Shown: in pieces, positions 1 through 30,330 of the stretch
Position numbering within the stretch: position 1 is the stretch's first letter
Layout: each line of letters opens with the position of its first letter
Assembly: GCA_965228735.1 (NCBI GenBank)
Contig: OZ245838.1
Span: forward strand, 4,032,001-4,096,000
DNA length: 64,000 nucleotides
Direction of reading: 5' to 3'
Source: Planctomycetota bacterium
Lineage (GTDB): Bacteria; Planctomycetota; UBA1135; UBA2386
Translations under genes and position numbers: made by a program
Notes under the pieces: model-generated
The model's database searches: none
What the model was told of the DNA's origin: nothing
The model's input: the letters and a program-made list of their open reading frames with translations, nothing else

Positions 1-2100
1 CGCGTCGACGTCGTCGAGCGACAGCGCCGCGAACGCGCGGTTTGCGAACAACTCGCCGGGCGCCTCTTCGGCCGCGGTCGACCCCAGCAGCTTCCGGGCG
101 GCCTCGAACTCGCCGAGAGCGAGCAGCGCCGCCGCCAGGTTCGAGGCGGACAACGGCGAGCCGGCAGTCGCGTGGGCTCGGGCGAAGTAGCCCTTCGCCG
201 CGTGGGCGGATCCGTGACCGAGCTCGAGCGCGCCGCGCGCCGTCGCGATGACCGGATCGTCGGCGAGCGCGATCGCGCGATCGAGCAGTCGGCGCGCCTG
301 CGGCACGTTGCCCTGGCGCGCGTAGAGGATCCCTGCCGCCGTGAGCGCCATCGCGTTGCGCGGCTCGAGCTGCACGGCCCGTTCGATCGAGGCCAGCGCC
401 TGGCGGACCTGACCGCCATGGAGCTCGGACTGCGCCCGATCGAGCCAGTGTCCCGCGAGCCCGTGCCGGGTGACGGTCAGCCCTTCGTCGGCCGGCAGCT
501 CGACGGGCAACGCATCGGGCGTCCGCACGCCGATGCCCGACGGGTGGCGCGCCGAGCCCTGGAGCGAACCACCGCTCCAGTCCTCGGAGCGCAGTTCATC
601 GAGCCCGATCGAGTTGAACTGGAACCCGCGCCGCAGCTGCACGAGCCGATGCGACCCACGCCGCACGGCCTCCTCGATCCACGTATCGTCGAGCACGCGG
701 GGCGACAGGATGATCATGAGCTCGACCTCGGTCCGCGACTGCACGGTGCTCGAGAAGAGCTGCCCGACGAACGGGATGTTCATCAGGAACGGCACGCCCT
801 GACGGGTCTCGTCCTTCCGCGTGCTCCGCAAGCCGCCGAGCGCGATCGCCTGACCGTCGGACACCCGCACGAGCGTCGTCGCCGTGCGTTCGCTGACGAC
901 CGGCACCTCGACCAGACCGTCGGGCGTGATCACCGTGCCGGTGCGCTCGCGCACGGAGGGCGAGATCGCGACCGTGAGGATGCCGTCCTCGCCGATCATG
1001 GGGCGCACGTTCAGCGTCACGCCGGTATCGACGAAGTCGACGCTGAACTCGGTTCGCGCCAACCCGCCGTTGTCGATGACCTCGCGCGAGATCACGGGGA
1101 CCTGATCGACGACCGCGATGTTCGCCGGCTGGTTGTTCATCGTCGCCACGCGAGGGCTGCTCAGCACGCGCACCTCGCCCTGCCGCTGCAGCGCGTCGAC
1201 GAACGCGGAGAAGTCACCCGTGTCGAGCACGCCGAACGTGAGCGCAGCGCCGCCCGACGCGGCGGTCTGCGTCAGCACGCCGCCGCCCGTCGCCGTACCG
1301 ACCTTGTTGCTGTTGAAGAGGTCGGGCAGCAGCGACCAGTTGACGCCGAGGCTGTAGCTGTCGTTGAGGCGCACCTCGAGGATCCGCGCCTCGAGCGACA
1401 CCTGTCTATTCACGCGCCGCAGCGTCGTGTCGATGAGCTCGCGCAGGCGCGCGACCCGCTGCGGACTGGCTTCGACGTGGACGGTCGCCGAGGCGCGGTT
1501 GATCACCGCATCGGCACCGTCACCCAGCACCTGCGGCAGCATCGTCTCGAGATCGGCCCAGAAGTCGACGTCGTTCTGCCCGGCACCCTGCGCGCCGGCG
1601 TTGGCTTGCCCACCGCCGGCCGCGGCGGCGCCCTGCATGTTGGGACCGATCGTGTTCTCGACCGACATCAGGTCCACGTACATCGTCTCGCGCACGCGGT
1701 CGGTCACGCGCAGGAAGCCGCCGTCCCACGAGTACCCGAGGTCCACGCTCTCGAGCAACGCTTCGAACGCCTGCTCGATCGTCGACTGCTTGATGTCGAA
1801 CGTGCACGGCGTCGCGGCGACGTCGGGGTCGACGATCAGATTGATGTCGGAGTCCTTGAACAGCGCGAGCAGCACATCGCCGACCGCGCTGTTGCGGGCC
1901 TGGAGCGATTGCATGGCGCGCCCGGTCGATCGGGTCGCCGAGAGCTCCGGCATCGGAACGACGAGCATCGGTCGATAGACCGCCGAGCCGGCGCCATCGT
2001 CCTGATCCAACCTCGGGGGCGAGGCCTCGCCCATCGGCGTGCAGCACGCGAGGACTGCGGCACCCCAGGCCGCCACTACCGTCTGACAACGTCGCATCAT
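1..2100 (-). CDS. MshL/GspD/PilQ-family secretin with C-terminal TPR extension (3' end runs off the window)
   Basis: Not in the ORF track; translated by hand from ATG 2100 (ATGA overlap with the upstream stop, GGAGAGGAG upstream). Contains DFWADLE, RQVSLEARILEVRLNDSYSLGVNW, VLSSPRVATMNNQPA, TGVTLNVRP and GVPFLMNIPFVGQLF..ELMIILSPRV (secretin core), then TPR-like helices (ALASIERAVQLEPRNAMA). Open to base 1. Confidence 0.9.
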   Translation of the reverse strand, partial: MMRRCQTVVAAWGAAVLACCTPMGEASPPRLDQDDGAGSAVYRPMLVVPMPELSATRSTGRAMQSLQARNSAVGDVLLALFKDSDINLIVDPDVAATPCTFDIKQSTIEQAFEALLESVDLGYSWDGGFLRVTDRVRETMYVDLMSVENTIGPNMQGAAAAGGGQANAGAQGAGQNDVDFWADLETMLPQVLGDGADAVINRASATVHVEASPQRVARLRELIDTTLRRVNRQVSLEARILEVRLNDSYSLGVNWSLLPDLFNSNKVGTATGGGVLTQTAASGGAALTFGVLDTGDFSAFVDALQRQGEVRVLSSPRVATMNNQPANIAVVDQVPVISREVIDNGGLARTEFSVDFVDTGVTLNVRPMIGEDGILTVAISPSVRERTGTVITPDGLVEVPVVSERTATTLVRVSDGQAIALGGLRSTRKDETRQGVPFLMNIPFVGQLFSSTVQSRTEVELMIILSPRVLDDTWIEEAVRRGSHRLVQLRRGFQFNSIGLDELRSEDWSGGSLQGSARHPSGIGVRTPDALPVELPADEGLTVTRHGLAGHWLDRAQSELHGGQVRQALASIERAVQLEPRNAMALTAAGILYARQGNVPQARRLLDRAIALADDPVIATARGALELGHGSAHAAKGYFARAHATAGSPLSASNLAAALLALGEFEAARKLLGSTAAEEAPGELFANRAFAALSLDDVDA

Positions 2101-2753
2101 TTCTCTCCTCTCCCCGTATCTCCGTCGATGGCCGTGGCCATCGCGGGCGCGGCGACTACGTCGGCCGCGGCTGCGGACGCGGCCAGTTCTGCCGCGCGCC
2201 GCCGTTCGAGCTCACTCCGGAACTCGCGCGGCCAGGCGTTCTCGAAATCGTAGGTGAGCACCCGGCCGCGCCAGATCCCGACGACGGCGCCGCGCTCGAT
2301 CCGTTCGACGGCGAAGCCCTGGATCTCCTCGCCGGTCCCGACCACCTGCCCGCCCAGAACGGCGCGGTCGGCGCGGTCGCTGAGCATGACCACGCCGAGC
2401 TGCAGCTGCGGCGGCTCCGTACCACGCCAGCCGACCGACGGCCCGCCGGTCTCGGCGAGCGGCGTCGGGGCGATCGCCTGCAGGGCCAGCTCGGTGACCG
2501 CCATCCGAACGGGCATGCCGATCGCGTAGCTGCCATGACGAGCCAGCAGGTCCTCCCAGTTGGCCGCATCGGCGCCGGCCAGGACGTCGTTCAGACCATC
2601 CTCGTCGTCGAAGTCGTCGCCCATGGGATCGAACGGCACCGGCGCCGGGCTGCTGCCGAGATCGAGGAGCGCATTGCCAGCGACTGCGCCGCCCACCACG
2701 AGCATGAGCACGGCGACGACGGGCGGCACTCCCTTGCGTTGCTTCTTGCTCAT
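2097..2753 (-). CDS. Pilus/secretion accessory protein, MshK/PilP/GspC-like
   Basis: N-terminal TM; C-terminal LQLGVVMLSDRADRAVLGGQVVGTGEEIQGFAVERIE resembles the small beta domain of MshK/PilP; lies immediately upstream of the secretin. Confidence 0.6.
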   Translation of the reverse strand: MSKKQRKGVPPVVAVLMLVVGGAVAGNALLDLGSSPAPVPFDPMGDDFDDEDGLNDVLAGADAANWEDLLARHGSYAIGMPVRMAVTELALQAIAPTPLAETGGPSVGWRGTEPPQLQLGVVMLSDRADRAVLGGQVVGTGEEIQGFAVERIERGAVVGIWRGRVLTYDFENAWPREFRSELERRRAAELAASAAAADVVAAPAMATAIDGDTGRGEK

Positions 2754-3265
2754 CGCCCGGCCTCCGCCGTGCCCTCGTGATAGGTCGCGAGACCCAGTTC
2801 GAAACCGACGGTGCCGGGCCCGTCGGGCAGGATTCGCCCGGTCTCGACGACGACGAGGTCGGTCGCGGTCTCGATGCTGGCGATGAACTCGCAGAGTGCC
2901 GTGGGCTCGGCTATCCCGACGGTTCGATAGGTCTGCTTCTCGGCAGCCGACGAGGCGTTGGCCTTGAGCTGCACCAGTTCGACACCGTGCTCGTCACCGA
3001 GCTGTTGGATCGTGCGCAGCGTCCCGGGCACATCGGCGGCGACCGTCAGCTGCCAAGGGCTAGGCTCGGGAACGTTCTCCACGACGGGAGCCGTCCGCGC
3101 CGTCTCGAGCTCGTCCTCGAGATCCAGCAGCCGATCGCCCGCCGCCTGCAGCGCCGCCTCCGCGCTGGCACGCTGCCAGCGCACGACGGCCGCGAACCCG
3201 ACCTGCAGCACCGCAACCGCGATCACGACACCGGCGACCACCCGCCGCTTCTCCATGGTCTTCAC
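2750..3265 (-). CDS. PilO/GspM/MshJ-like inner-membrane alignment protein
   Basis: C-terminal part of track ORF 2750..4462. GTG 3265 overlaps the upstream stop (GTGA) and has GGAGG 6 nt upstream. TM + coiled coil + ferredoxin-like C-terminus (LCEFIASIE); follows the PilN-like domain. Confidence 0.65.
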   Translation of the reverse strand: MKTMEKRRVVAGVVIAVAVLQVGFAAVVRWQRASAEAALQAAGDRLLDLEDELETARTAPVVENVPEPSPWQLTVAADVPGTLRTIQQLGDEHGVELVQLKANASSAAEKQTYRTVGIAEPTALCEFIASIETATDLVVVETGRILPDGPGTVGFELGLATYHEGTAEAGR

Positions 3266-4674
3266 GAGTGCCTCCATGCGATCTGCACGCGGAACTGGAC
3301 ACGTTCGGGGTGACCGACCACCTCCTCGACCTCGTCCTTGCCGAGGTCGTGCAGGTAGGGCAACGCGTGGAGCGCGTCGACGAACTGCGCCAGCAGCGCG
3401 AGCGCCTCCTGGCGACTGTCGCCTTCGACGATGCCGGTGATCGTGACGGGCGCGGCACTCGCGAACTGGATCGAACCGATGTGGACGTTCGCCGGCGCGA
3501 GGTTGCTCACCTCGGCGAACATCCGGCTGACGGGTCGGCGCATGCTGAGCGCGAGATCGATCGTGCCGGCAGCGGCAGTCTCGCCGTCGGGAGCCGCGGC
3601 CGCTTGCACCTGGATCAGTTCGTTCTCCAGCCGAGTGCGCTCGACGGCCGCGCGGTCGAGTTCCGCTGTCGTCGCGATCAGCTCGCGGCCGTCGTTGACG
3701 CCATAGGCGAAGACCGCGAGGCCCGCAGCCGCCACCGCGGCGACAGCCGCAACACGGCGCCGCGGCCATGGCACGTCGAGGTGCGGTTCGCGCTCGAGCG
3801 CCGGCACACGCTGTCCGGCGAACAGCTGCTCCATGAGCATGAGCGTTGCGAGGCCGGGCGTCGTATCGATCTCGTCGAGATCCCAATCGAGCTCGGGGAA
3901 CTCGATGTCGTTGGCGATGCCGGCGAGCAGCTCCATCGACTCGTCGTCGAACGGGAACCGTCGACCCAGCACGAGCATGCTCGGCTCGTCGTGTCCGGAT
4001 TCCGTGAGCCAGCTCTTCGTCCGCGGCACTTCGATCGCGAGCTGCGCCGCGAGCGCGAGGGACTCCTCCGTGCCGCCCCGCCCGCCGAGCAGGAAGCGGC
4101 GCACCTTCACCGGCACCCCGCGCTGGCAGTAGACGTAGCGGGCCCGGCCGCCGTTGAGCTCGAGAACTGCCGACGACGCCGCGTCGATCGGCGCCGCGAG
4201 CGCCATGCAGGCCTCCGAGGTGTGCACGCCCAGCACGTCGAGCCCGACGGCCCGACACGCCTGGTCCATCCGCTGGACGACGCTCTGGGGCAAGGCCGAA
4301 ACCGCGACCTCGAACCGGCCGTCCCAGGCCGCGCGCAGCATGCGCGGCGCGAGCAGGACCTCGCTCGACTGCGACATGCTCGACAGGCGCAGCGCCTCGC
4401 GCTTGAGGAACCCGACCATGTCGGCCACCGCCATGCGAGGGACTGCGGCAGCGAAGTGGCACGCCCGACGGTCGCCGATGATCACATGCACACCGGCGGC
4501 ACCCCGCATCGGATCGCTACCGAGCGAGGACAGGGTCGCGCGCAACGTCTCGGCGTTGATGTCGACCAACGGCAGCCGCTCGCAGCTGAAGATCCGCGCG
4601 TTGCCGCCCGCGGCAGCGCCGATCGTCAGCGTGACGCTGCCCTCCTCGAACTCGATGATCGCGTGGGTCTTCAT
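3262..4674 (-). CDS. Fused PilM-like (actin fold) - TM - PilN-like protein (GspL/MshI architecture)
   Basis: Start MKTHAIIEFEEG at ATG 4674. PilM-like segments (ACRAVGLDVLGV, AVLELNGGR, QLAIEVPRT), one TM, then a PilN-like domain (MFAEVSNLAPANVHIGSIQF..VTITG..AQFVDAL). Confidence 0.7.
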   Translation of the reverse strand: MKTHAIIEFEEGSVTLTIGAAAGGNARIFSCERLPLVDINAETLRATLSSLGSDPMRGAAGVHVIIGDRRACHFAAAVPRMAVADMVGFLKREALRLSSMSQSSEVLLAPRMLRAAWDGRFEVAVSALPQSVVQRMDQACRAVGLDVLGVHTSEACMALAAPIDAASSAVLELNGGRARYVYCQRGVPVKVRRFLLGGRGGTEESLALAAQLAIEVPRTKSWLTESGHDEPSMLVLGRRFPFDDESMELLAGIANDIEFPELDWDLDEIDTTPGLATLMLMEQLFAGQRVPALEREPHLDVPWPRRRVAAVAAVAAAGLAVFAYGVNDGRELIATTAELDRAAVERTRLENELIQVQAAAAPDGETAAAGTIDLALSMRRPVSRMFAEVSNLAPANVHIGSIQFASAAPVTITGIVEGDSRQEALALLAQFVDALHALPYLHDLGKDEVEEVVGHPERVQFRVQIAWRHS

Positions 4675-4682
4675 GGCACTGC

Positions 4683-5351
4683 TCAGAATCCGATGTCGTC
4701 GGTCGTGCCGAACGAGCGATCCGGTCCGGCGCTCGTCAGCGTGTGGGTCGCGGCATCCCATTGCAGGGTCGTGCCGAACCCGTCCGTGTCGTAGGAAGCG
4801 CCGAGTCCGATCGCCGTGCGGACCGTCGGCCAATCGCCTGCGACCGAGCCGCCGGCCTCGATGTGCTCGGCGAGCACCTCGACGATGAGTCGAACGCGGG
4901 CGTAGGTCCGGCGCGTGCCCGGCACCGCGCCGGCGACGACCACGACGTGCTCCTCGGTCGCCGCGCCGTCGTCCACGCCGTTCTCGCCCCGACTGTGAAC
5001 GGTGGCGGTGTTGGCCGCGGCATCGACGGCGTAGACGTACTCGAGGCCGGCGCCGAACGAGTCGATCACGGCGGTGTTCGCCACGCCGGTCTGCAGATGC
5101 TCGCCGACGAAGTCCGTCGCGGTCAGACTGACCGGGAAGGCCGCGTTCTCGAAGTAGTACGACTCCAGTGCGCGCGCGATCTTCGCAAGCTCGGCGGTCG
5201 CCTCCTGCCGACGGTCCGCCGCGATCACGGCACCCGCGAGCGGCACGGCCGTGCCGAGCAACAGGCCGAGCACGGCGAGCACGACGACGACTTCGAGCAG
5301 CGTGAAACCGCGCTCGCCGGCACCACGGGAAGCGCGAGCGCTACATGTCAT
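4683..5351 (-). CDS. Type IV pilin/pseudopilin, GspG-like, with two head modules
   Basis: Class III signal RG/FTLLEVVVVLAVLGLL with E5; GspG-like C-terminal motifs SRGENGVDDG and SAGPDRSFGTTDDI. Confidence 0.85.
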   Translation of the reverse strand: MTCSARASRGAGERGFTLLEVVVVLAVLGLLLGTAVPLAGAVIAADRRQEATAELAKIARALESYYFENAAFPVSLTATDFVGEHLQTGVANTAVIDSFGAGLEYVYAVDAAANTATVHSRGENGVDDGAATEEHVVVVAGAVPGTRRTYARVRLIVEVLAEHIEAGGSVAGDWPTVRTAIGLGASYDTDGFGTTLQWDAATHTLTSAGPDRSFGTTDDIGF

Positions 5352-6156
5352 CGGCCGTTCCTCCGGTTCGGTCGGCGCCGACCGCGACGACGCCGACCGT
5401 CGAGTCGAGTATCAGCGGCACACCGCCACCATCCACGGCACGGCTGTCGGGCATGCCGAGCCCCTCCATGAGCCCGCCGGCGCCGGTGACGGCCGGCGGC
5501 AGCGGCGTACAACCATGCGCGGCAGTGATCGTCGAGACCGTCGTCCGCGCGTCGTCCATCCGGGTCGTCAGCGCCGCGCGCGTTGCGGCATCCGCCGTGA
5601 GGTACGAGCGGCGCGCGATCGCGTAGTCCCGCATCGCCGCGACCACGGCGTCCTCCTCGGCGTTCGTCATGGTCGCCGCCCAGCGGTAGCCGCTGCGCGC
5701 GAACGCGGCGCGGATGAGGCGCAGGCGAGCACGTTGCCGCGCACGGAGCAATGACTCGGTTCCGACGGAGGCCACGATGTCGTCGCTCGTGTCGAGCTGG
5801 CCGTCGGCGCCGCGACTCCGGATTCGCAACGTGTTCGCAACCATGCCGTAGTCGAGGTCGGCCGCCCCGCCCCACGGATCGTGCCGCCACGGACCGAGCA
5901 CCGGCCCGTTGGCGCCCGCCACGAGGTCGTCGACCGAAGCCGGGAACGCGCCGGTACGCCGGAACCGGTCCCGCGCAGCAGATTCGGCGGTGGCCACGTG
6001 CGACTCGGCCCGAGCGCCGGCGTCGGCGAACGGCACGAGCACCTCGACGGCGAGCACGATTGCGAGACTGCCGGAAGCGATCACGCCGAGCAGCACGAGC
6101 AGAGCGAAGCCCGCCTCGCACTCGCCTTCGTGATGACCGCGGATCGACCCCGTCAT
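5341..6156 (-). CDS. Minor pilin lacking E5 (GspK/PilX-like) with GspG-type head motifs
   Basis: ATG 6156 overlaps the upstream stop (ATGA). AG/FALLVLLGVI has no Glu at +5. Contains DPWG and SRGADGQLDTSDDI, plus a second AVGADRTGGTADDM. Confidence 0.7.
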   Translation of the reverse strand: MTGSIRGHHEGECEAGFALLVLLGVIASGSLAIVLAVEVLVPFADAGARAESHVATAESAARDRFRRTGAFPASVDDLVAGANGPVLGPWRHDPWGGAADLDYGMVANTLRIRSRGADGQLDTSDDIVASVGTESLLRARQRARLRLIRAAFARSGYRWAATMTNAEEDAVVAAMRDYAIARRSYLTADAATRAALTTRMDDARTTVSTITAAHGCTPLPPAVTGAGGLMEGLGMPDSRAVDGGGVPLILDSTVGVVAVGADRTGGTADDM

Positions 6157-7361
6157 TTGCCGATCCCCTTCATCGCGGTGTAGATCGTCGTCACCACGAG
6201 AACGGCGACGCCACCGACGACGATGCCGAGGAACACCGTGACCGCCGGCTCGAGCAGCGCGAGCGCGCGCTTCACCGCGGCCTTGACCTCGCGATCGTAG
6301 AGCCGCCCGAGCTTCTCGAACGTCACGGGCAGGCGACCGGCCTCTTCGCCAACCTGCAGGATGCTCGTCGCGACGGGCGGCAGCAGCTTCGCTTCGGCAA
6401 CCGAGTCCGACAGCCGCGCGCCGCCGATGATCCGTTCGCGGCACTGCAACAACGCCGCGCGGTGGTACGGCGACACGACACCGGCAGCCGCGAGTTCGAG
6501 CGCATGCGGCATCGTGAGGCCGGCCTGCAAGAGCACGCTCATCGAACGCGACAGCTGCGCGACGGCCAACGTGGCGACCACGTTGCGAGCGACGGGCATG
6601 CGGCCGATCCCCGACGTGATGACGTCACGCACGCGCGCCAGTCTGAGGAGCAGACCGAGAGTCACGAGGCCCGCGATCGAACCGATGATGATCGCGACGA
6701 TGTGCGCCTGCACGAAGCCCGAGCAGTCGATGAGCCAGCGGCTCGCCGCCGGCAGCTCGGCGCTCATCTTCGCGATCACGGCGCCGAGGCGCGGCACGAC
6801 GAACGACAGCATGAACAGCACCATCGCGTAGCCAGCCGCCAACACGATCGTCGGGTAGACGAGCGCCTGCCGCACCGTGCCCGCGATCTCGAGCTTCCAT
6901 TCGAGGTAGCCGGCGATCGAACTGAGCACGTTCGGCAGGCTGCCCGATTCCTCGCCCGCGCGAACGAGCGCGCAGTAGACCGCAGGGAACGACCGCGGAT
7001 GCGCAAGCAGCGCGTCGGACAGTAGCTGGCCGTCCGCCACCCGCTCACTGAGGTCGGCGAGCATCCCTTCGATACGAGGATCGTCTTCCTGCTCGCCGAG
7101 GGCGCGGAACGTCATCAGGAGCGGCACGCCGGCGTCGAATGCCTCCTGCATCGCCTGCGTGAGCAGCATCAGACGACGCTGCCCGAGCGCGACTTCCCGC
7201 ACCGGCGCCCGCTCCGACGGCTCGTCGTCGAGCTGCCGGCACTGCAGCAGCGCGCGGCCTTCCGCGTGCAGCTGCTCGTGCAGCGATTGCTCGTCGGCGG
7301 CCTCGAGCTCAGCGACGGCCTGGGATCCGTCGCACTCCAGGATGGTTGTCCGGTATCGCAT
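6153..7361 (-). CDS. Type II secretion F / PilC platform protein
   Basis: AGVPLL, G.LLSDAL..HPRSFP..YCALVRAGEESGSL, ALVYP, and a second repeat VGEEAGRL..LLEP; three TMs. Start ATG 7361 chosen; the track starts at 7397. Confidence 0.93.
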   Translation of the reverse strand: MRYRTTILECDGSQAVAELEAADEQSLHEQLHAEGRALLQCRQLDDEPSERAPVREVALGQRRLMLLTQAMQEAFDAGVPLLMTFRALGEQEDDPRIEGMLADLSERVADGQLLSDALLAHPRSFPAVYCALVRAGEESGSLPNVLSSIAGYLEWKLEIAGTVRQALVYPTIVLAAGYAMVLFMLSFVVPRLGAVIAKMSAELPAASRWLIDCSGFVQAHIVAIIIGSIAGLVTLGLLLRLARVRDVITSGIGRMPVARNVVATLAVAQLSRSMSVLLQAGLTMPHALELAAAGVVSPYHRAALLQCRERIIGGARLSDSVAEAKLLPPVATSILQVGEEAGRLPVTFEKLGRLYDREVKAAVKRALALLEPAVTVFLGIVVGGVAVLVVTTIYTAMKGIGK

Positions 7362-7422
7362 CAGGGGGCGGGGGGGACCACCGATCGCGTGCGGCACGTT
7401 CGGGCCGCGTCGAGAGCGGCGG

Positions 7423-8073
7423 CTACTGCTTCTGCGTCAAGATCAGGCCGATGTCGTCACCGGCGATCTCGGTCGTGGCGAGGGACTGCCAGTTGGTGTC
7501 GAACTGGCCGTTGGGCCCGGCGGAGATCACGTACATCCGCTTGTGCCGAGTCGCGTGCGTGCGCCAACCCGAACCGACGTTGATGATGTATGGGCGACCC
7601 CACGGATCGACCGGGGAGCTGCCGGCGGTGTACGGGCCGCGCCAGCGCAGGTTGCCGGTCGTCGCGTACGCGGCGCCCACCTGGCCGCCCGGCGAGTTGC
7701 GCAACAGGTGCTCGTCGAGCAGGTCCCCGCGCGTGCCGTTCATGCCCCACGTGATCCAGCGGTGACCGCGCGTCCACGGGTTCGACGTCGGCATCGCCGG
7801 TCCGGTCATCAGGACGAAGAGCTGATTGTCGTTCCCCGAACTGTTGCGCGCCGGAAAGCTGCCGAGGTCCGCGTTCACCTTCGTGATGGCGGCCCCGAGC
7901 ACCTTGACCTCGGCCTCGGCCCGCGCCCTTCGACCGTCTTCCATGTAGCTGGACAACATCGGCACGGCGATGCCGGTCAGCAGCAGGATGACCGAAAGTA
8001 CGACGATCACCTCGACCAAAGTGAAGCCGACCTCCCGTCGGCTCTCTGGGTATTTCCCGATGGCGGTGGACAT
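7423..8073 (-). CDS. Major pseudopilin/pilin, GspG-like
   Basis: VG/FTLVEVIVVLSVILLLTGIAVP; WRGPY, VDPWGRPY and ISAGPNGQFDT..DDI are GspG signatures; first gene of the operon. Confidence 0.9.
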   Translation of the reverse strand: MSTAIGKYPESRREVGFTLVEVIVVLSVILLLTGIAVPMLSSYMEDGRRARAEAEVKVLGAAITKVNADLGSFPARNSSGNDNQLFVLMTGPAMPTSNPWTRGHRWITWGMNGTRGDLLDEHLLRNSPGGQVGAAYATTGNLRWRGPYTAGSSPVDPWGRPYIINVGSGWRTHATRHKRMYVISAGPNGQFDTNWQSLATTEIAGDDIGLILTQKQ

Positions 8074-8080
8074 GCCAGCG

Positions 8081-8109
8081 GCATCGAGTTTCAAGAACAG
8101 GAACTTGAG
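8081..8109 (-). promoter_or_regulatory. sigma28 (FliA)-like promoter for the pilin operon
   Basis: Minus strand CTCAAG-N15-CTCGATGC, 7 nt before ATG 8073; same spacing and a near-identical downstream sequence as the motif at 31763-31791. Confidence 0.55.
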
Positions 8110-8137
8110 ACGATCACCGCGATACGAACGCGAGTTC

Positions 8138-8167
8138 CTCAGGTTCGATCCCCTCGTCGGCCGATCA
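8138..8167 (+). promoter_or_regulatory. sigma28 (FliA)-like promoter for the PilB/GspE ATPase
   Basis: CTCAGG-N16-GCCGATCA, 5 nt before ATG 8173 (8 nt before GTG 8176). Confidence 0.55.
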
Positions 8168-8172
8168 CGGGA

Positions 8173-9846
8173 ATGGTGACCGAAGCCCCGAAGGACCACG
8201 AAAGCCCCGCGGCAACGGCGGACGGCGACCGCCGCTTCCTCGAGGAAGCGCTGCGCAACGCGCCCGCCGGCGAAGCCGCGGAGATCGAACGCCTCGCCAC
8301 CATGGGGATGATCCCCATGGAACGGGCGTATCAGATCTGGGCGGACATGCTCGGGCTCACGTTCTACGACCTCGACAACCAGCGCACGAACCCGCACGTC
8401 CGGCACCTGATCCCGGTCGACCTCGTCTCACGCCACGAGACGATCCCGATCAGCACCGTCGACGGCGTCCTCGTCGTCGCGCTCAAGAACCCGTTCGACC
8501 TGGCGGCCGTCGACGAGGTCCAGGAGGTCACGGGCATGTCGGTCGAGGTCGCGCTGGCGACGCCCGACGCGATCCGACGCGCGATCGAACGCCTCCACCG
8601 CGGGGCCGCCGGCATCGAGGGCTTGATCCAGAAGCTCGAGAAGGCGGAGATCGACACCGTCGCCGACGGCGACAGTCTGCGACGCCTCGTCGGCCACGAC
8701 GCCGTCGTGCAGCTCGTCGATCACCTGATCGAAGAGAGCCTGCAGGCCCGCGCCAGCGATCTGCACGTCGAGCCGCAGCGCGACCAACTGCGACTGCGGG
8801 TCCGAATCGACGGCGAGATGCAGACGCTCTACGAGCTGCCGCCCGGCCTGCACCGCGCCGTCGTCGCCCGGATCAAGGTCGCCTCGGGCATGGACATCGG
8901 CGAGAGCCGCAAGGCCCAGGACGGCCGCATCGCGGTGTCCGACAACGTCGAGCTGCGCGTGTCCGTGCTGCCGAGCGTGCTCGGCGAGAAAGCCGTGTTG
9001 CGCGTTCTCGACCGCAGCACGGCATCGCACGATCCGGCGAGCCTCGAGATGTCGCCGGCGAACCTCGATCGCTTCCGCCGCGCCTACACCCACCCGACCG
9101 GCATGGTGCTGCTCACCGGCCCGACCGGCTCCGGCAAGACGACCACGCTCTACACGGCGCTCGGCGAACTCAACCGGCCGGAGCGCAACGTCGTGACGGT
9201 CGAGGACCCGGTCGAGTACGAGATGGCCGGCGCGACCCAGGTCCAGGTGGACCCGAAGGCCGACCGCACGTTCGCGAAGGCGCTGCGCAGCATCCTGCGC
9301 CAGGACCCCGACGTCGTGATGGTCGGCGAGATCCGCGACACGGAGACCGCCGCGATCGCGGTGCAGGCAGCGCTCACGGGTCACATGGTGCTCAGCACGC
9401 TGCACACGAACGACGCCCTGGCCGCCGTGCACCGCCTCGACGACATGGACGTCGCGCCCTACCTGCTCGGCCCGGCGTTGCGCGCCGTCGTCGGCCAACG
9501 CCTCGTGCCGCGGATCTGCAAGTCGTGCTCGACCACCGCGGAGCCGATGCCGGGACTGCTCGCGGAGTTCGGTCTCGACCCCGACGGCCGGCACGACGAG
9601 TTCCGCACCGGCAGCGGCTGCGCCACGTGCCGTGGCCGCGGTCGACGCGGCCGCATCGCGATCCACGAGGTGCTCTACATCACCCCGGAGATCGCCGCCG
9701 CGATCTCCCGCAAGGCCGCCCGCGAAGAGGTCCACGCACTCGCCGACGCCGCGGGCTACCGCCCGATGCTCATGGACGGACTCGACAAGGCCCGCGCCGG
9801 GCTCGTGACCCTCGAGGACGTCGCCGCGATCGCGCGCATCCACTGA
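8173..9846 (+). CDS. GspE/PilB-family pilus assembly ATPase
   Basis: ASDLHVEP, QDGRI, Walker A GPTGSGKTTTLY, TVEDPVEY, LRQDPDVVMVGEIRD, TGHMVLSTLHTND, and a tetra-Cys zinc motif (CKSC..CATC). True start lies inside track ORF 7159..9846. Confidence 0.96.
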   Translation: MVTEAPKDHESPAATADGDRRFLEEALRNAPAGEAAEIERLATMGMIPMERAYQIWADMLGLTFYDLDNQRTNPHVRHLIPVDLVSRHETIPISTVDGVLVVALKNPFDLAAVDEVQEVTGMSVEVALATPDAIRRAIERLHRGAAGIEGLIQKLEKAEIDTVADGDSLRRLVGHDAVVQLVDHLIEESLQARASDLHVEPQRDQLRLRVRIDGEMQTLYELPPGLHRAVVARIKVASGMDIGESRKAQDGRIAVSDNVELRVSVLPSVLGEKAVLRVLDRSTASHDPASLEMSPANLDRFRRAYTHPTGMVLLTGPTGSGKTTTLYTALGELNRPERNVVTVEDPVEYEMAGATQVQVDPKADRTFAKALRSILRQDPDVVMVGEIRDTETAAIAVQAALTGHMVLSTLHTNDALAAVHRLDDMDVAPYLLGPALRAVVGQRLVPRICKSCSTTAEPMPGLLAEFGLDPDGRHDEFRTGSGCATCRGRGRRGRIAIHEVLYITPEIAAAISRKAAREEVHALADAAGYRPMLMDGLDKARAGLVTLEDVAAIARIH

Positions 9847-18316: not shown

Positions 18317-20197
18317 CTACGACTGGACCGTGAGCTTCAGCGCGTTGCTGACGACGTACGGCACCGGCGTCGTCGCGGCCGAGTCCGCGAGCACCAACTG
18401 GTAGCAGAGGTTGACGCCGACGAACGTCGGGTTGTTGGGGATCGGCGCGTTGAAGAAGTGCGTGCCGTCCGCGTCGCCGAACGTCACGGCCACGACCACC
18501 GGGTTGGCGATGAACTGCGCGCACGTCGGACCGAGCAGGCCGGCGAGCGGGATCGGCGTCGCCAGCGTCGAGAAGCTGCCCATGACGAACCCGGGCTGGA
18601 ACGGCTCGGCGCGAATGCAGCCGATCTCGAGCGCGGTGTTGCCGACCTGCGGGAAGCCGTTCCAGACCTCCATCACCGGCGTGCGGCCGGTCGCGGCGAG
18701 CGGGCACGGCTGGCCGACGGTCTCGATGCCCGGACCGAACGGACCCGGCATCTCGAGGTCGCCGATGCCGACGAGGCTCGTGAAGTACGGGCCGAAGCTC
18801 GGGTGGAACGGCGGCAGGTAGCCGTTGGGGCCCTGCGGGGTCTCGTAGGGCATGTAGGCCTCGCCCTGATCGATGACGCCGTTGCCGTTGCTGTCGGTCA
18901 TGCTGACGATGCCGTCGTTGGTGCCGCCGTTCTCCCAGACGAAGTTGACGCTGCCGCTCGGCGCCGCCGAGAACGCCCAGGTCGAACCGCTGAGGCTCGC
19001 GACCGGGTTGAGCGACGGGTTGTCGAACGTGATCGGGGCGACACCGCCGTGCGTCTGCGTCGAGACGTTGAAGTAGAGGTTGACCTCGCCCGCGTCGACC
19101 ATCTGGTTGTTGTTGGCGTCGACACAGCGGTAGATCAGACCCGAGATCTTCTCGCCGTTGAGATTGACGTCGCCCTCGGCGTTCGTGCGGTAGCTCGAAC
19201 CGAAGTAGTAGACGTCCTCACCGTTCGGACCGGCGCCCGCGACCACGTCCATGAAGCGCGCGTGGTTGACGCGTGTCGCCGGTGCCGAACCGTCCTGCAC
19301 GTCCCAGTTGGGGAACGTCGCGGTGGTCGCCGAACGCGGATCGTCGAAGTCCGGGTGCACCGGCAGCTCGTTGAGCGCCGAGGCGTTGAAGAACACTTCC
19401 GGAACGGCCGTCCCCGCGTTGTCGGTGAAGCCGTACCACGCATTCATCTCCGGCTGCACCGTGTAGGTGTACTGCACCGGGTTGGTGTTCGGGATCGGCG
19501 CGCCGTCGATCGACAGGCCACGCGCGTAGGCGACGACCTTGCCGCCGGGCAGCACGCGCACCTGGCTCCAATAGTCACGACTGATCGTCACCGGACCGTT
19601 GAGGCCGGGAACCGTGAGGTTCATCGAGCTGTCGACGAACATGCTCTGCTCGCCCGGATCCATCGCGTCACCATCGCCGTTGGCGTCGACCAGCCGGTGG
19701 ATGCCATTCGTGTAGCCCTGCGACGACGGCTGCGAGTTGTCGAGCGCGACGTAGACGCGGGTCTCGGCCGGCGACACGCTCGTGTCGCGGTAGACGCCGA
19801 GCGAGTCAGGCGAGAACAGCGGGCCGCTCGAGCCGCCGCCGAAGCGGAAGAAGATCGTCGCCTCCGACGGGTCGATCACACCATTGTGGTTCTCGTCGGC
19901 GCCGCGCACCACGAGGCCGTCCTCGGAGTCGCAGAAGTAGAACGCCGCGACGCCGTCCTCCCAGACGTAGCGACCGTCCACCATGAAGTTCGTGTTCGCC
20001 TGCGTCGGCAGCACCGTGCAGAACGCGTAGATCTCCTCGGAGGTGATCTGCCCGTCCCGGTTCTGGTCCTTCACGCGGGCCGCCGGGTAGCTGGAATTCG
20101 GCGGGCCGCTGGCGTTGCCGAATCCGAGGGGGAAGACGAAATCCTGCGCGGCCGAAGCCGTGGCGAGGAAGAGAACCGCGATCGAGAGTCGTTTCAT
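18317..20197 (-). CDS. Secreted protein with five Ca-binding DxNx(D/N)G-type loops and a C-terminal beta-sandwich domain
   Basis: Signal peptide MKRLSIAVLFLATASAA/Q; DQNRDGQI, DENHNGVID, DANGDGDA, DANNNQMVD, DSNGNGVID; ends YQLVLAD..VSNALKLTVQS. Confidence 0.8.
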   Translation of the reverse strand: MKRLSIAVLFLATASAAQDFVFPLGFGNASGPPNSSYPAARVKDQNRDGQITSEEIYAFCTVLPTQANTNFMVDGRYVWEDGVAAFYFCDSEDGLVVRGADENHNGVIDPSEATIFFRFGGGSSGPLFSPDSLGVYRDTSVSPAETRVYVALDNSQPSSQGYTNGIHRLVDANGDGDAMDPGEQSMFVDSSMNLTVPGLNGPVTISRDYWSQVRVLPGGKVVAYARGLSIDGAPIPNTNPVQYTYTVQPEMNAWYGFTDNAGTAVPEVFFNASALNELPVHPDFDDPRSATTATFPNWDVQDGSAPATRVNHARFMDVVAGAGPNGEDVYYFGSSYRTNAEGDVNLNGEKISGLIYRCVDANNNQMVDAGEVNLYFNVSTQTHGGVAPITFDNPSLNPVASLSGSTWAFSAAPSGSVNFVWENGGTNDGIVSMTDSNGNGVIDQGEAYMPYETPQGPNGYLPPFHPSFGPYFTSLVGIGDLEMPGPFGPGIETVGQPCPLAATGRTPVMEVWNGFPQVGNTALEIGCIRAEPFQPGFVMGSFSTLATPIPLAGLLGPTCAQFIANPVVVAVTFGDADGTHFFNAPIPNNPTFVGVNLCYQLVLADSAATTPVPYVVSNALKLTVQS

Positions 20198-20310
20198 GTA
20201 TTGGGGTGTAGGGATCCTACGGTGGGCGAACATTGTGCCCGCAACAGTGAAGGAATAGCCAAACCGCGGTGGGGTTCCGTTTTTCACCCCGCTGCGCCAC
20301 GATGCGCCCC

Positions 20311-21009
20311 ATGCCGGGGTCACCCCCTCCACCACCGCCAGAACCCTCGTGGCTTCGCGACGTTCCGCGCGGCCGGGTGCTCGCGTTCGCGCCCCACCCC
20401 GACGACGAGATCGCGGGCCCGGGCGGCTGTCTTGCGCTGCACCGTCGCGCCGGCGACGAGGTGCGCGTCGTCGTCGCCTCGACCGGCGCTGCCGGCGACC
20501 CCGAGGGCCGCTTCGATCCCGCGACGTTCGCCGCCACGCGCGAGGCCGAATCGCGCCAGGGTCTGCGCGAACTCGGCGTCGACGACGTCGTCTACTGGCG
20601 ACTGCCCGACAACTGCGTTCTCGGTGAGCAGGACTACGAGCTCGGTCACCAACTCGCGACCGCGGCGATCACGGAGTGGTCACCGACGATCCTCTACCTG
20701 CCGTGGGAGGCCGAGGGTCACCCCGATCATCACGCCCTGCATCGCATCGTCCTCGAGGCCATGCGACGCGCGCAGTTCGACGGCGATGCGTTCGGCTACG
20801 AGGTGTGGAACGCGATGATCCCCGACGTCGTCGTCGACATCACCGCGGTCGCCGAGCAGAAGCGCCGCGGGATCCGGGCGCATGCGACCCAGACGGCCTA
20901 CGTCGACTTCGAGCACACGATCCTCGGCCTCAACGCCTACCGCGCGATGGTGCACGCGCGCGGTCGCGGCTACTGCGAGGGGCTGCGGCGGATCGCGATC
21001 GGGATGTAG
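20311..21009 (+). CDS. PIG-L/LmbE-family deacetylase
   Basis: APHPDDE, RE.E, GHPDH, HATQ motifs. Confidence 0.92.
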   Translation: MPGSPPPPPPEPSWLRDVPRGRVLAFAPHPDDEIAGPGGCLALHRRAGDEVRVVVASTGAAGDPEGRFDPATFAATREAESRQGLRELGVDDVVYWRLPDNCVLGEQDYELGHQLATAAITEWSPTILYLPWEAEGHPDHHALHRIVLEAMRRAQFDGDAFGYEVWNAMIPDVVVDITAVAEQKRRGIRAHATQTAYVDFEHTILGLNAYRAMVHARGRGYCEGLRRIAIGM

Positions 21010-26250: not shown

Positions 26251-27240
26251 ATGACGCCGACTCCACCAACCGTCGAAGAGGTCCAACGCGCGTGGCAGCG
26301 CTTCGAGGGCCGGATCCGTGAGACCCCCGCGTGGGAGTGGTCCGGATTCCGCGTCGATCGGCTCAAGCCTCCGGGTTCGACGCTGTTCCTCAAACTCGAA
26401 CTGCTGCAGCACACCGGCACGTTCAAGCCGCGCGGCGCGCTCACCGTGATGCTCGACCTCGATCGCGAGCAGCTCGACCGCGGCGTCGTCGGCGTGAGCG
26501 CGGGCAACCACGGCATGGCGCTCGCGTTCGCGGGTCAGCAGCTCGGCTCGCACGCCACCGTGGTGATGCCCACGACCGCCAACCCCGCGCGCATCGCCGC
26601 GTGCCGCGCGCTCGGCGCCGAGGTCGAGTTGCTGCCCGACATCGCGGCCGCGTTCGCGCGCGCCGAAGAGCTCGAACGCGCGGGCCAGACGTTCGTGCAT
26701 CCGTTCGAGGGGCCGAAGACGGCGCTCGGCACGGCGACGCTCGGTCTCGAGTTCCTGCGCCAGGTCGGCAAGCTCGACGCGCTCGTCGTCGCGATCGGCG
26801 GCGGCGGGCTCGCGGCCGGCGTGGCCGCCGTGGTCAAGCAGCTGCAGCCGCGCTGCCACGTCATCGGCGTCGAACCCGAGGGCGCCGACTCGATGAGCCG
26901 GAGCTTCGCCGCCGGCTCGCCGCAGTCGATCGAGGCCGTGCGCACGATCGCCGACAGTCTCGGTGCACCGGCGGCCGAACCGTACTCGTTCGCCCTCTGC
27001 CGCGACCACGTCGACGAGATCGTGAGAGTCAGCGACGACGAGCTGTGCCGCGCCACCGCGCTGCTCTTCGGCGACGCCAAACTCGCGGTCGAACCGGCCG
27101 GCGCTGCGTCGACCGCCGCGATGCTGCAGTGCGGCGACCGACTGCGCGATCGGCGCATCGGCATCATCGTCTGCGGCGCGAACGTCGACCCGGAGACGCA
27201 CGCGGCGTGCATGCGTCGCGGCCAGGACGGCGTCTTCTGA
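26251..27240 (+). CDS. PLP-dependent threonine/serine dehydratase-family protein (no regulatory domain)
   Basis: KLELLQHTGTFKPRGA, SAGNHG, IGGGGL, VEPAGA, CGAN. Confidence 0.92.
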   Translation: MTPTPPTVEEVQRAWQRFEGRIRETPAWEWSGFRVDRLKPPGSTLFLKLELLQHTGTFKPRGALTVMLDLDREQLDRGVVGVSAGNHGMALAFAGQQLGSHATVVMPTTANPARIAACRALGAEVELLPDIAAAFARAEELERAGQTFVHPFEGPKTALGTATLGLEFLRQVGKLDALVVAIGGGGLAAGVAAVVKQLQPRCHVIGVEPEGADSMSRSFAAGSPQSIEAVRTIADSLGAPAAEPYSFALCRDHVDEIVRVSDDELCRATALLFGDAKLAVEPAGAASTAAMLQCGDRLRDRRIGIIVCGANVDPETHAACMRRGQDGVF

Positions 27241-27794
27241 TGCGAAAGCTCACCCTGCTCGGCGTCCTGCTCGCGGCCGGCGGCTTCTGCGGCGGCCTCG
27301 GGTCGTTCGCGGCGCTCGCGTGGTCGGGCGAACGCATCTACGAGATGGAGCTGTCGCCCGGCAGCGGCGGGTCGCGCGACCACGAGATCGCGCTCGATCT
27401 GCGGCCGGACATGAACCCGCTCGCGATGACCGCGACGTCGAGCGACGCCGGCGCCACGGCCAGCATCGCCGTGACGGACGCGAACGGCACCGTCATCTTC
27501 GAGCAGGACCAGGGCGGCAAACCGGGCGGGGAAGCGGCGTGGTTCTTCGCGCCGATCCAGATCATCGCCGCCGGTCGCCACCGCATCGTCTACTCGATCG
27601 ACCGGGACATCGAAGGCAGCATCGACCTGCGCGCGAACGTGTTCGTGTTGACCCCGGCGATCATGTTCTCGTGCCTCGGGCTGATGTTCGTGGGCTTCGG
27701 GCTGCTCGTGCTGACCTCGATCCAACGGGCGATTGCGACGATGAAAGAAGTGCGTCGGATGCAGGCCGGCCCCAACCCGGTGCCCGGCCCGTAG
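27240..27794 (+). CDS. Hypothetical membrane protein (TM - beta domain - TM)
   Basis: ATG 27240 overlaps the TGA of the dehydratase; C-terminal part of track ORF 26331..27794. Confidence 0.7.
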   Translation: MRKLTLLGVLLAAGGFCGGLGSFAALAWSGERIYEMELSPGSGGSRDHEIALDLRPDMNPLAMTATSSDAGATASIAVTDANGTVIFEQDQGGKPGGEAAWFFAPIQIIAAGRHRIVYSIDRDIEGSIDLRANVFVLTPAIMFSCLGLMFVGFGLLVLTSIQRAIATMKEVRRMQAGPNPVPGP

Positions 27795-27886
27795 CTACGA
27801 GCGCGACCCGCATTCGACCACCCGCGGTCCGGGTTTTCTCCGACCCCGCTTCAGCGCTGCCGCACGCCCGTTCGTAGGGACGGCAG

Positions 27887-28510
27887 ATGGCGCGCTCGTC
27901 CGACAGCCACGGCCCGCGGGGTCACGTCGACCCCGTGCTCGCGGCCGAGATTCGCGCCGTGACGAGCGGGGACGCCGCCGCGATCGACGCCTTCTGCCGC
28001 CGCGAACACCCGGCCGTCTATCGCCTGTGTCTCGGCTTCCTCGCCTGCGCGACCGAAGCCGAAGACGCCGCCCAGGACGCGATGCTGCGACTGCTCGACG
28101 TGCTGCCGCAGTACGACGCGGACCGACCGTTCATGACCTGGCGCAACCGCGTCGTGCTCAACCTGTGCCGCGACCGACTGCGCCAGACGGGTCGGCGCCG
28201 CGCGGCCGAGCGCGCCGCCGCCGAACGGGAAGGTGACGACGCTGCTCCGGTGATCGACCCGCTGGCGCGCGCCGAGTTGCGCGCCACGCTGACGCGCGCG
28301 CTCACGGTCCTGCCGCAGCGCGAGCGCGAGGCTTTCGTGCTGCGCGAGCTCGAGGGCAACGGCGCGACGGAGACGGGTCGCGTCATGGGGATCCACGCGA
28401 GCTCGGTGCGTTCCCTCACAACCCTCGCCCGCCGCCGGCTTCGCACCCTGCTCGCCGCGACGCTGGATCCCGAACTGCCGGAGTTGCCTGGAGGCGCACG
28501 CTGTGGCTGA
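27887..28510 (+). CDS. ECF sigma-70 factor
   Basis: EAEDAAQDA, F.TW..RVVLNLCRD.LR, LPQREREAFVLRELEG, SVRS...ARRRLR. Confidence 0.93.
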   Translation: MARSSDSHGPRGHVDPVLAAEIRAVTSGDAAAIDAFCRREHPAVYRLCLGFLACATEAEDAAQDAMLRLLDVLPQYDADRPFMTWRNRVVLNLCRDRLRQTGRRRAAERAAAEREGDDAAPVIDPLARAELRATLTRALTVLPQREREAFVLRELEGNGATETGRVMGIHASSVRSLTTLARRRLRTLLAATLDPELPELPGGARCG

Positions 28511-29075
28511 CCTCGAACGCAACGACCCGGAGCTGGACCTGCTGCGACAGGCGTGGGCCGCGCTCCAGGCCCCGGCATGGGGCGACGACGGCGGCGACGG
28601 CGGCGACGCACTCGACGAGGTCGACAGGTCTGCCTCCGCACCCGATCCGATCGTCACCGACCTTCGTGCCGCGTACCGCGATGTCACGCCGCGCCGTGCG
28701 TTCGTGCCACCGCCGTTCGCGCCGCATCAGGCGCCACCGCGACCCGGGCGCTGGCACACCTACTGCCTGCGCGGCGCCGCGCTGCTAGCGGCGACGATCG
28801 GAGCGTCGTGGCTGCTCACGGTCGCCGACCACCCCGGCATCGGCGCCCCCATCGACCCGCCACCCGTGCGCCGGGCCCACGCCGAGCCACGACCGGTCGC
28901 GCGCGTGCTGCGAACGGACGCTACCGGCACGGAGATCGTGCACGGCCCCGTGCGCCTGATCCTGCTGCCCGCCCCCATCGAATCCCCGAACGAAGAAACC
29001 CGGCTCGACGAGACCGCGACCGCCGAGACCCCGACCGCCGAAACCACTGCCGACCGCACCAACCCGAATCGCTGA
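28503..29075 (+). CDS. Putative membrane anti-sigma factor
   Basis: Overlaps the sigma stop, GGAGG upstream; short cytoplasmic N-terminus, one TM, short periplasmic tail; no ZAS motif seen. Confidence 0.6.
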   Translation: MADLERNDPELDLLRQAWAALQAPAWGDDGGDGGDALDEVDRSASAPDPIVTDLRAAYRDVTPRRAFVPPPFAPHQAPPRPGRWHTYCLRGAALLAATIGASWLLTVADHPGIGAPIDPPPVRRAHAEPRPVARVLRTDATGTEIVHGPVRLILLPAPIESPNEETRLDETATAETPTAETTADRTNPNR

Positions 29076-29085
29076 GGAAACCACC

Positions 29086-30330
29086 ATGTTCGCCATCGCC
29101 GAGATGATCACGAGATCCACGATCCTGCCCGTCGCCGCGGCGCTGTTCGCGACCGGTCTGCTGACCGGCCCGGCACCTGCCCAGGACCCGCTGCGCTCCG
29201 ACGACACCAAGCTCGAGTTCGTGCGCCCTGAGCACGTCGACCTCGTGAGCCTGCAGCGCATGGTGTCGGAGCTGCACGGCCGGACGCTCGCGTTCGAGGA
29301 CGGCCGCACCGTCAAGAACGTGATGGTCGGCAACGGCGCGCTGATCCTGCACGACCGCCCCGAGCGCATCCGAGAGATGCTCGCGACGATCGAGCAGATC
29401 GACGTCGCGCACGAGCCGGTCGCGACCGACTACCAGATCGAGGTCTACTCACCCAAGCACACGGACGTCGGGGCGCTCTGCGCGCTGGCGCAGCGGGTGC
29501 TGGCGCGCCGCGTGCCGGCTCGCCTCGGTGGCGACACCGAGAGCATCGTGCTCGTCGACGGCCAGCTCGTCGTCCGCGAGCTCGAGCCGCACATCGGCGG
29601 CGTCGTCGAGAAGCTACGCGCGCTCGACGAAGCGCTCGCCCAGGGCGCCGACAGCGATCCGGTGCTCGCGATCGAGTACACGCCGCGCGCCCTCAGCCCC
29701 CAGTCGGCGATCCAGGCGCTGCAGCCGATGCTCACCGGGCCGATGGGTCAACGCCAGGTCCAGGTGCGCAACCTCGGCCAGGGCGGACCGCTGATCCTGC
29801 AAGGGCGCAGCAAACAGATCGAGAACGCCAAGGAACTGCTCGAACAACTCGATCGCCCCGCACCACAGGTGATGGTGTCCGGCTACGTGCTCACGGGCAC
29901 GAACGACGACGACGCCAAGGGCAGCAACGCCAACTCGGAGCTCACCGACGTCCTGCAGGAGCTGCTCCCGTACGAGAGCTACAAGATCCAGGCGGCGAGC
30001 GTCGTGCGGGTCGCGGCCCGCCCGAACAGCCAGTTCCAGCTCGACCTCGCGGGTCCCAAGACCGGCATGGCCCAGGCGCGCTACTCGCTGCAGGGCACGA
30101 TCGCGGCCTACGACTCCGACGCCGAGTCCCTGACGTTCAGCAGCCTCGCCGCGATGCGGACGCACCAGGCGATTCCGGGCCGATCGATGTTCCGCACCGC
30201 GGCGACGATCTACGCCGGCGAATACGCGGTCCTCGGCGTCGCGGGCGGTGAACCGCTGTTCGTCGTGCTGCGCCTCAAGCCGGTCAAGGCCGGGCGGCCC
30301 AAGGCGAGCCGCGAACGCAAGTCGAACTGA
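29086..30330 (+). CDS. Exported protein with tandem secretin N-domain (N3/NolW-like) repeats and no recognisable secretin barrel
   Basis: Signal peptide; three repeats ending MLATIEQID, VEKLRALD and LLEQLDRPAPQVMV; then ~150 aa lacking the secretin C-domain motifs. Confidence 0.7.
   Translation: MFAIAEMITRSTILPVAAALFATGLLTGPAPAQDPLRSDDTKLEFVRPEHVDLVSLQRMVSELHGRTLAFEDGRTVKNVMVGNGALILHDRPERIREMLATIEQIDVAHEPVATDYQIEVYSPKHTDVGALCALAQRVLARRVPARLGGDTESIVLVDGQLVVRELEPHIGGVVEKLRALDEALAQGADSDPVLAIEYTPRALSPQSAIQALQPMLTGPMGQRQVQVRNLGQGGPLILQGRSKQIENAKELLEQLDRPAPQVMVSGYVLTGTNDDDAKGSNANSELTDVLQELLPYESYKIQAASVVRVAARPNSQFQLDLAGPKTGMAQARYSLQGTIAAYDSDAESLTFSSLAAMRTHQAIPGRSMFRTAATIYAGEYAVLGVAGGEPLFVVLRLKPVKAGRPKASRERKSN

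Follow-up and report, generated by a model that had tools for sequence, protein, structure and literature searches.

A sigma factor operon of Planctomycetota with a likely secretin-derived partner

Envelope signalling through extracytoplasmic function (ECF) sigma factors is well described for the RpoE-RseA-RseB and AlgU-MucA-MucB systems, in which a sigma factor, a single-pass anti-sigma factor and an exported partner are encoded in that order and autoregulated. The partner, RseB or MucB, binds the periplasmic tail of the anti-sigma factor, RseB-RseA being the precedent for a periplasmic partner on an anti-sigma factor and RseA that for its stepwise proteolysis. In the FecI-FecR-FecA and FoxI-FoxR-FoxA type, a domain of an envelope protein contacts the anti-sigma C-terminus, and in FoxA-FoxR the periplasmic partner protects the anti-sigma factor from proteolysis (PMC11637429). 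Here we analyze three adjacent genes in a 64,000-nucleotide stretch of contig OZ245838.1 from a Planctomycetota bacterium (hereafter the window), which encode an ECF sigma factor, a putative anti-sigma factor and an exported protein that we call the mini-secretin. The trio, with its stress-type sigma factor, occurs in deep-branching planctomycetes and likely represents a mode of envelope-controlled gene activation that has not been described. Its overall logic of sigma factor, anti-sigma factor and periplasmic partner is already known, and the secretin-derived partner would be the new element.

Secretins (GspD/ExeD/PulD, PilQ, InvG, RcpA and f1 pIV) are outer-membrane channels made of 12-15 subunits and appear in the cited literature as membrane-inserted rings. 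Their core is made of two four-stranded sheets (PMC10499894) and their N3 domain drives oligomerisation and builds rings (PMC6155069), while only the lip and the amphipathic loop enter the membrane; this loop is present in all solved secretins (PMC6532946), is a family signature and is essential for membrane insertion (PMC8134430). The mini-secretin has the same N-type repeats and N3-core junction motif, and its core is predicted to contain the same double four-stranded sheets in the same strand order, but it differs in its shorter core, in a short turn that replaces the amphipathic loop, in the absence of long gates and of a match to Pfam Secretin (PF00263), and in belonging to a sigma operon and not to a secretion or pilus locus. 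A naturally shortened secretin is also found in the mitochondrial GspD of some protists, which, as described in PMC8134430, keeps the amphipathic loop, inserts in membranes and has lost its N domains; the mini-secretin has kept its N domains and lost the loop.

Compared with the regulatory systems above, the trio likely works as the RseB/MucB type does, with a partner that shows a secretin-like fold and no MucB/RseB Pfam match, an anti-sigma factor outside any Pfam family, a different promoter (TTCAGCGC-N14-GCGTA) and no wider regulon found. As in the FecI-FecR-FecA type, contact of an envelope protein with the anti-sigma C-terminus is predicted, but the trio has no TonB-dependent receptor and no STN or FecR match, and its contact would be made through the edge of the secretin core. 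In the literature searched, largely without subscription papers, no paper was found that describes a partner derived from a secretin in an ECF operon. The searched text of the ECF classification supplement (PMC7826278) has no mention of 'secretin', 'NolW' or 'TCAGCG', and a preprint on Saltatorellota (10.1101/817700) describes them as ECF-rich without mentioning secretins in its available part.

The three genes are tightly coupled on the plus strand, with an overlap of 8 bp between the sigma and anti-sigma genes and a gap of 10 bp before the third, in a genome of 7.19 Mb on a single contig that holds the mini-secretin gene once. The same order recurs in dozens of genomes, which is more than chance would give. 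Starting from the third gene, a sigma gene lies upstream in 23 of 29 loci, the other six having fewer than 370 bases of upstream sequence. In a survey that started from the sigma factor (the best 80 of 185 loci, with a query made from linked sigma factors and so biased towards linked loci), the anti-sigma gene comes next in 80/80, and of the 62 loci having at least 1,900 bases downstream, 58 then show the third gene; the 18 loci with shorter downstream DNA were set aside, the third gene being still visible in 10 of them. Further regions contain the trio in 18/20 cases, including 11 of the 12 from outside the order. These three sets share genomes and their counts are not additive. Fusions of the mini-secretin with the sigma or anti-sigma factor are absent among the proteins examined, which reach 767 aa, and each downstream gene family is limited to at most 6 of 54 loci (upstream neighbours were not clustered). 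The original prediction, made from the letters of the window, had pointed to three tightly coupled genes as a candidate signalling system, and both the coupling and the conservation of the order are borne out at the sequence level.

Concerning the distribution of the family, a search with a profile of the core yields 397 clusters at 50% identity, 359 of them at E 1e-10, and the best 150 of the 397 are proteins of 118-450 aa with the profile match at or near the C-terminus. Identity of the window's protein to other members is low (18-37%). Among 201 genomes of the class 48 have the core domain, and among 301 of the phylum 14 have it, 12 being from outside the order; its spread is patchy, with only 1 of 39 other genomes of the window's own family carrying it. 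Named relatives belong to Planctomycetota; clusters of look-alikes of 264-269 aa appear in Acidobacteriota (Atlas). Two cultured strains, Saltatorellus ferox Poly30 (L080) and Rohdeia mirabilis Pla163 (L104), carry the trio, and one genome (G150) has two complete copies, L174 and L175. Loci L040, L042, L046 and L101 are labelled as non-planctomycete; the three of them placed on a tree nest among planctomycete loci, and the labels given by the submitters are probably loose. L042 and L041 score identically.

The mini-secretin is predicted to be exported. Its N-terminal hydrophobic stretch ends ahead of a nearly invariant Q33, the N-terminus is hydrophobic in 61 of 64 members, and a lipobox pattern is seen in 1/64 and 0/150 members of the two sets scored. 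Because the anchor loop is missing (see below), the N-terminus is hydrophobic and the lipobox almost never occurs, the protein is probably soluble in the periplasm. Secretin_N (PF03958) matches it in two stretches (E 4e-11), one of them at residues 199-261, just before the core. The third repeat is the equivalent of N3: residues 192-258 superpose on secretin N domains with root mean square deviations (rmsd) of 1.7-2.2 A over 61-66 residues (Z 8.4-9.3), and together with the first core strand they give a profile match to secretins (E 1.7e-6). As in secretins, this N3-type domain immediately precedes the core, the junction motif LDRPAPQV occupying residues 255-262 and 155 residues running from P260 to the stop. 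Repeat numbers vary among the 64 aligned members, hidden Markov models (HMMs) finding two in 53, three in 9 and only one scored in 2, and the three-repeat form of the window is a minority form. An exported protein with three N3/NolW-like repeats ending in LDRPAPQV is what had originally been proposed, and the signal-like stretch, the Secretin_N match and the fold comparison all agree with it.

The C-terminal domain, originally described as barrel-less, turns out to be a probable condensed secretin core. The AlphaFold2 model of the whole protein (predicted local distance difference test, pLDDT, 87) consists of the three N repeats plus this domain, whose 141 residues modelled alone reach a pLDDT of 93. 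For the full protein, every structure listed by Foldseek at E <7e-4 is a secretin. The isolated domain has no Foldseek match at E 0.001, but in a fold search of 48,161 chains its top 12 matches are without exception secretins (Z 7.6-9.9, with 110-117 residues aligned at rmsd 4.1-5.5 A) and span the entire secretin domain of each (e.g. InvG 302-518, ExeD 327-575); unrelated barrels come next at Z ~7, making the margin modest. N3 and core jointly superpose on secretins over 175-190 aligned residues (Z 9.5-10.5). By sequence, PF00263 matches 0 of 30 core domains, with no meaningful Pfam match of any kind in these 30 members, and the best hit of the core alone in a profile search of the PDB has E 0.83. 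The inner and outer four-stranded sheets of a secretin are both present, in the predicted model only. What has been lost can be read from the comparison with the seven full secretin domains encoded elsewhere in the same genome (the seven PF00263 matches of the genome do not include the mini-secretin). The distance from the junction to the glycine of the edge strand is 126 residues, versus 192-259 in these seven, and the 141-residue model covers 217-265 residues of the top secretin chains, its hairpin loops being short. The amphipathic-loop motif is found in 0/150 and 0/64 mini-secretins versus 7/7 secretins of the genome, and a short turn joins the last two core strands where the helical loop would be. 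By reading of the model, the missing parts would be the lip, the amphipathic helical loop and the long gate hairpins. These losses are internal, the last strand being retained, and the edge strand 379-385 is the most conserved element of the core. The barrel-less description is thus right for the PF00263 match, the anchor loop, the lip and the long gates, but not for the two sheets, which are predicted to remain. It should be noted that 95 of 150 scored members have cysteines at both residues 266 and 354, a possible disulfide across the core; the window's protein has neither (29881-29883, 30145-30147).

The sigma factor has Pfam matches to sigma70 regions 2 and 4 only (PF04542, E 6e-14; PF08281, E 9e-10), as is usual for the ECF type, and scores above the cut-off of TIGR02937, all specific NCBIfam sigma models among the matches listed being below theirs. 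It belongs to a tight subgroup of 45-58% identity. The putative membrane anti-sigma factor at position +1 and the conserved promoter-like motif upstream, whose functions we infer, also fit an ECF unit. Of 63 regions preceding the sigma gene (80 loci minus 17 without an anchor or enough upstream DNA, minus one duplicate, plus the window), 47 contain the pattern AGCG-N17-GTA, which is found in 0 of 177 background pieces, and the matrix gives TTCAGCGC-N14-GCGTA as the consensus, about 10-16 bases 5' of the start codon. In the window the -10 element lies 14 nt 3' of the -35 element and 10 nt 5' of the sigma start codon, and this site is the top-scoring one of its whole genome. There is no excess of other sites: 39 reach at least 14 bits with the right spacer, versus 20-44 with ten wrong spacers, and among the 29 best none is nearer than ~18 kb to any of the seven secretin domains. 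Across 201 genomes the pattern has 74 matches; nine of the 50 that were read precede this sigma gene, and the other 41 reveal no recurring target. Since sites are not in excess and no target recurs elsewhere, the operon itself is the only predicted target of the sigma factor, and weaker targets may have escaped.

The protein encoded next, which we infer to inhibit the sigma factor, has no Pfam family match. A search of 21 of these anti-sigma factors against Pfam at E up to 1 gives no FecR family, the Hx3Cx2C motif of the zinc-binding anti-sigma (ZAS) type is found in 0 of 80, and the Atlas matches are unnamed clusters only. The alignment reveals a common layout of conserved N-terminal motifs, one membrane helix, a variable Pro-rich linker and a conserved tail motif. 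Among 72 complete relatives, 66 have a hydropathy of at least 1.5 for the membrane helix, 63 have more basic residues before it, and 71 have an alanine pair at its start. The tail is associated with the third gene: its profile scores at least 12 bits in 57 of 68 anti-sigma factors linked to a third gene versus 0 of 4 unlinked ones. These four, at the loci without a third gene (L044:4406-5197, L057:4208-4999, L067:4522-5274 and L083:4548-5309), keep the sigma factor, the anti-sigma N-terminus and the promoter-like motif, and have a different tail, helical-repeat-like by reading. No core domain was found in a search of the four genomes, which may be incomplete. A quick tree places the four loci in one clade nested within the family (support 77), so the joint loss of tail and third gene counts as one natural experiment. 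The tail profile finds no relative in the PDB (best E 0.14), and a resemblance to FecR rungs or GspC HR strands is not supported by this search.

A direct contact between tail and mini-secretin is predicted by modelling the mature third protein with a 38-residue anti-sigma tail, using a 64-row alignment for each. The complex scores are 0.78, 0.78 and 0.77, the best of three controls reaching 0.00; the mark applied, which 116 of 157 complexes of solved structure attain and 2 of 215 mismatched pairs also attain, holds roughly since custom alignments were used. Contacts agree 100% between the runs, with a partner pLDDT of at least 74. In the model, strand 149-155 of the anti-sigma factor is predicted to pair with strand 379-385 of the mini-secretin by strand addition, with helix 285-294 packing on it and strand 367-376 also touched. 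The predicted interface lies wholly in the C-terminal core and names no residue of the N repeats. The contact residues are the most conserved on both sides, namely G148, V150, R151 and L152 in the anti-sigma factor and L290, T371, E379, V382, G384 and G387 of the mini-secretin, and the interface averages 2.82 bits (25 positions) versus 1.72 bits at 109 other positions. Couplings within the family link strand 261-272 with 298-310 and strand 380-386 with 391-399, as expected if 380-386 is a free edge. Tail and mini-secretin covary, in 64 pairs and uncorrected for kinship, with a top z of 5.5, little above the 95th percentile of shuffled pairs (5.1). Taken as a model, the complex supports binding of the tail to the core. 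A contact with the anti-sigma factor had been suggested by analogy with FecA; the contact itself is recovered in the predicted complex, whereas the FecA-like route through N-terminal repeats is not, the interface being in the core and STN and FecR being absent.

In the reading that we consider somewhat better than even, the mini-secretin is a periplasmic partner whose hold on the anti-sigma tail maintains the off state until the tail is freed by an envelope signal. With the tail held by the core edge strand, the anti-sigma factor would likely be shielded from cleavage and the sigma factor would stay off. Release of the tail would permit the anti-sigma factor's stepwise proteolysis, with which the alanine pair at the helix start (71/72) and the M50 proteases encoded in the genome are compatible. 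The freed sigma factor would then transcribe its own operon, yielding more anti-sigma factor and mini-secretin and resetting the switch. Edge 379-385 of the core presumably faces the neighbouring subunit in a secretin ring, in which case binding of the tail and growth of a ring would be mutually exclusive. In favour of the partner reading are the conserved gene order, the joint loss of tail and third gene, the complex model with its conserved contact residues, the missing anchor loop and the FoxA-FoxR precedent. For the signal, our best guess would be either a beta-strand acting as competitor or some ligand bound by the N repeats.

Several points weigh against this partner role. Eleven of the 68 linked anti-sigma factors fall under 12 bits on the tail profile, which was built from linked anti-sigma factors, some of them also tested. 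Two mini-secretins (L169:2163-3971 and L176:1930-4002) have no sigma or anti-sigma match in a 7-kb region. The joint loss of tail and third gene is a single event, taken from a quick tree and from possibly incomplete genomes. Sequence evidence of homology is weak for the part of the core after the first strand (E 0.13 with profiles against the seven secretins of its own genome). The complex model may lean on subunit contacts of solved secretins, and models commonly attach a strand to a free edge. An N3-like domain is kept in every member, a retention that a one-to-one partner does not explain, and the direction of control is not fixed by the present evidence.

The ring-building nature of N3 noted above gives weight to a rather doubtful alternative, in which the mini-secretin is the output of the system, a soluble periplasmic ring or open arc serving as scaffold or chaperone, with the tail capping and counting free subunits. 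An N3 ring with a double barrel without lip is conceivable, N3 and core superpose together on secretins, and with the operon's own promoter as the only recurring target, what the operon usefully makes could be the protein of the third gene. Strands 298-310 and 380-386 show two weak couplings (z 4.6 and 3.8) that could be ring contacts, but they come from a shallow alignment of about 200 effective sequences; moreover, the edges that would need to pair are unevenly conserved (3.18 bits for 380-386 versus 1.97 for 298-310 and 1.33 for 316-326), and the predicted tail site covers one of them. Slightly more doubtful is a decoy subunit, where the tail plugs the ring-building edge and stray secretin subunits or exposed periplasmic beta-strands displace it. 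If true, the decoy would let a sigma factor serve specifically as an alarm when pore assembly fails, with the alarm made from the pore protein. Against the monitoring of secretin assembly that was originally suggested stand the lack of any neighbour family recurring beyond 6 of 54 loci and of any top-29 promoter-like site within ~18 kb of a secretin domain.

The N repeats, variable in number and not named in the interface, would be free for a ligand, and receptor genes under their own sigma factor are typical of cell-surface signalling (PMC11637429). Both would suit an activating receptor, in which a ligand on the variable repeats makes the core engage the tail and so leads to cleavage of the anti-sigma factor. 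We hold this to be less probable again, given that neither an outer-membrane transporter nor any further fourth gene is conserved (6/54 loci at best), that the complex is predicted without a ligand, and that one clade retains sigma factor, anti-sigma factor and promoter-like motif without the third gene. Finally, the missing PF00263 match and the low identity among members might suggest a truncated or decaying secretin that stands by chance behind a sigma/anti-sigma pair, the remnant that the original prediction had named as refuting it. With 397 clusters, of which the best 150 include none longer than 450 aa and match at or near the C-terminus, with internal losses that spare the last strand, with seven full secretins elsewhere in the genome and with the gene order kept across the phylum, this explanation is hardly credible.

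Table 1. Positions of the trio, its predicted promoter and the main protein features in the window.
Feature	Position	Strand	Basis
Predicted -35 element, family consensus TTCAGCGC	27850..27857	+	motif, matrix, genome scan
Predicted -10 element, TCGTA here, GCGTA in family consensus	27872..27876	+	matrix, genome scan
ECF sigma factor P0001, 207 aa	27887..28510	+	Pfam PF04542, PF08281; TIGR02937
Putative anti-sigma factor P0002, 190 aa	28503..29075	+	alignment, hydropathy, gene position
Predicted anti-sigma membrane helix, residues 89-107	28767..28823	+	hydropathy 1.49, weak
Anti-sigma tail, residues 141-158, motif ELRSGxVRLxLL	28923..28976	+	conservation, predicted interface
Exported mini-secretin P0003, 414 aa	29086..30330	+	Pfam Secretin_N, predicted model, family profile
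Predicted signal peptide (cleavable; residues 1-32) without lipobox	29086..29181	+	hydrophobic stretch, Q33
Three secretin-N repeats, residues 42-105, 116-187, 193-255	29209..29850	+	AlphaFold2 model, repeat HMMs
Condensed secretin core, residues 260-399, predicted eight strands and one helix	29863..30282	+	predicted model, fold search
Core edge strand, residues 379-385, predicted tail docking site	30220..30240	+	complex model, conservation

As to the surroundings of the trio, a 184-aa protein with two hydrophobic stretches (27240-27794, plus strand) has no real Pfam match; its gene stops 92 bases short of the sigma gene, and the predicted promoter sits between the two. A cluster of secretion or pilus type at ~691-9846 lies ~18 kb from the trio, with no link seen; it includes a full secretin domain (691-1194, minus strand) and frames that, by reading their sequences, we take to be pilin-like, GspF-like and GspE-like. 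At 18317-20335 (minus strand) there is an exported-looking protein of 672 aa, whose repeated DxNxDG-like motifs resemble calcium-binding loops. In other genomes, a subgroup of trio loci (L046, L050, L089, L100, L103 and L113) has in common a gene downstream for an exported protein whose N-terminus is coiled, and some of these loci also have a small His/Cys-rich frame and another that is presumably a metal-binding component of an ATP-binding cassette (ABC) system.

If the partner reading is true, a secretion channel has been turned into a signalling protein, which would add a new class of partner, of ~400 sequence clusters, to ECF regulation. The reading can be tested now, the promoter and the contact residues being specified and cultured strains carrying the trio, and secretin folding could be studied without membranes with the help of a soluble secretin core.

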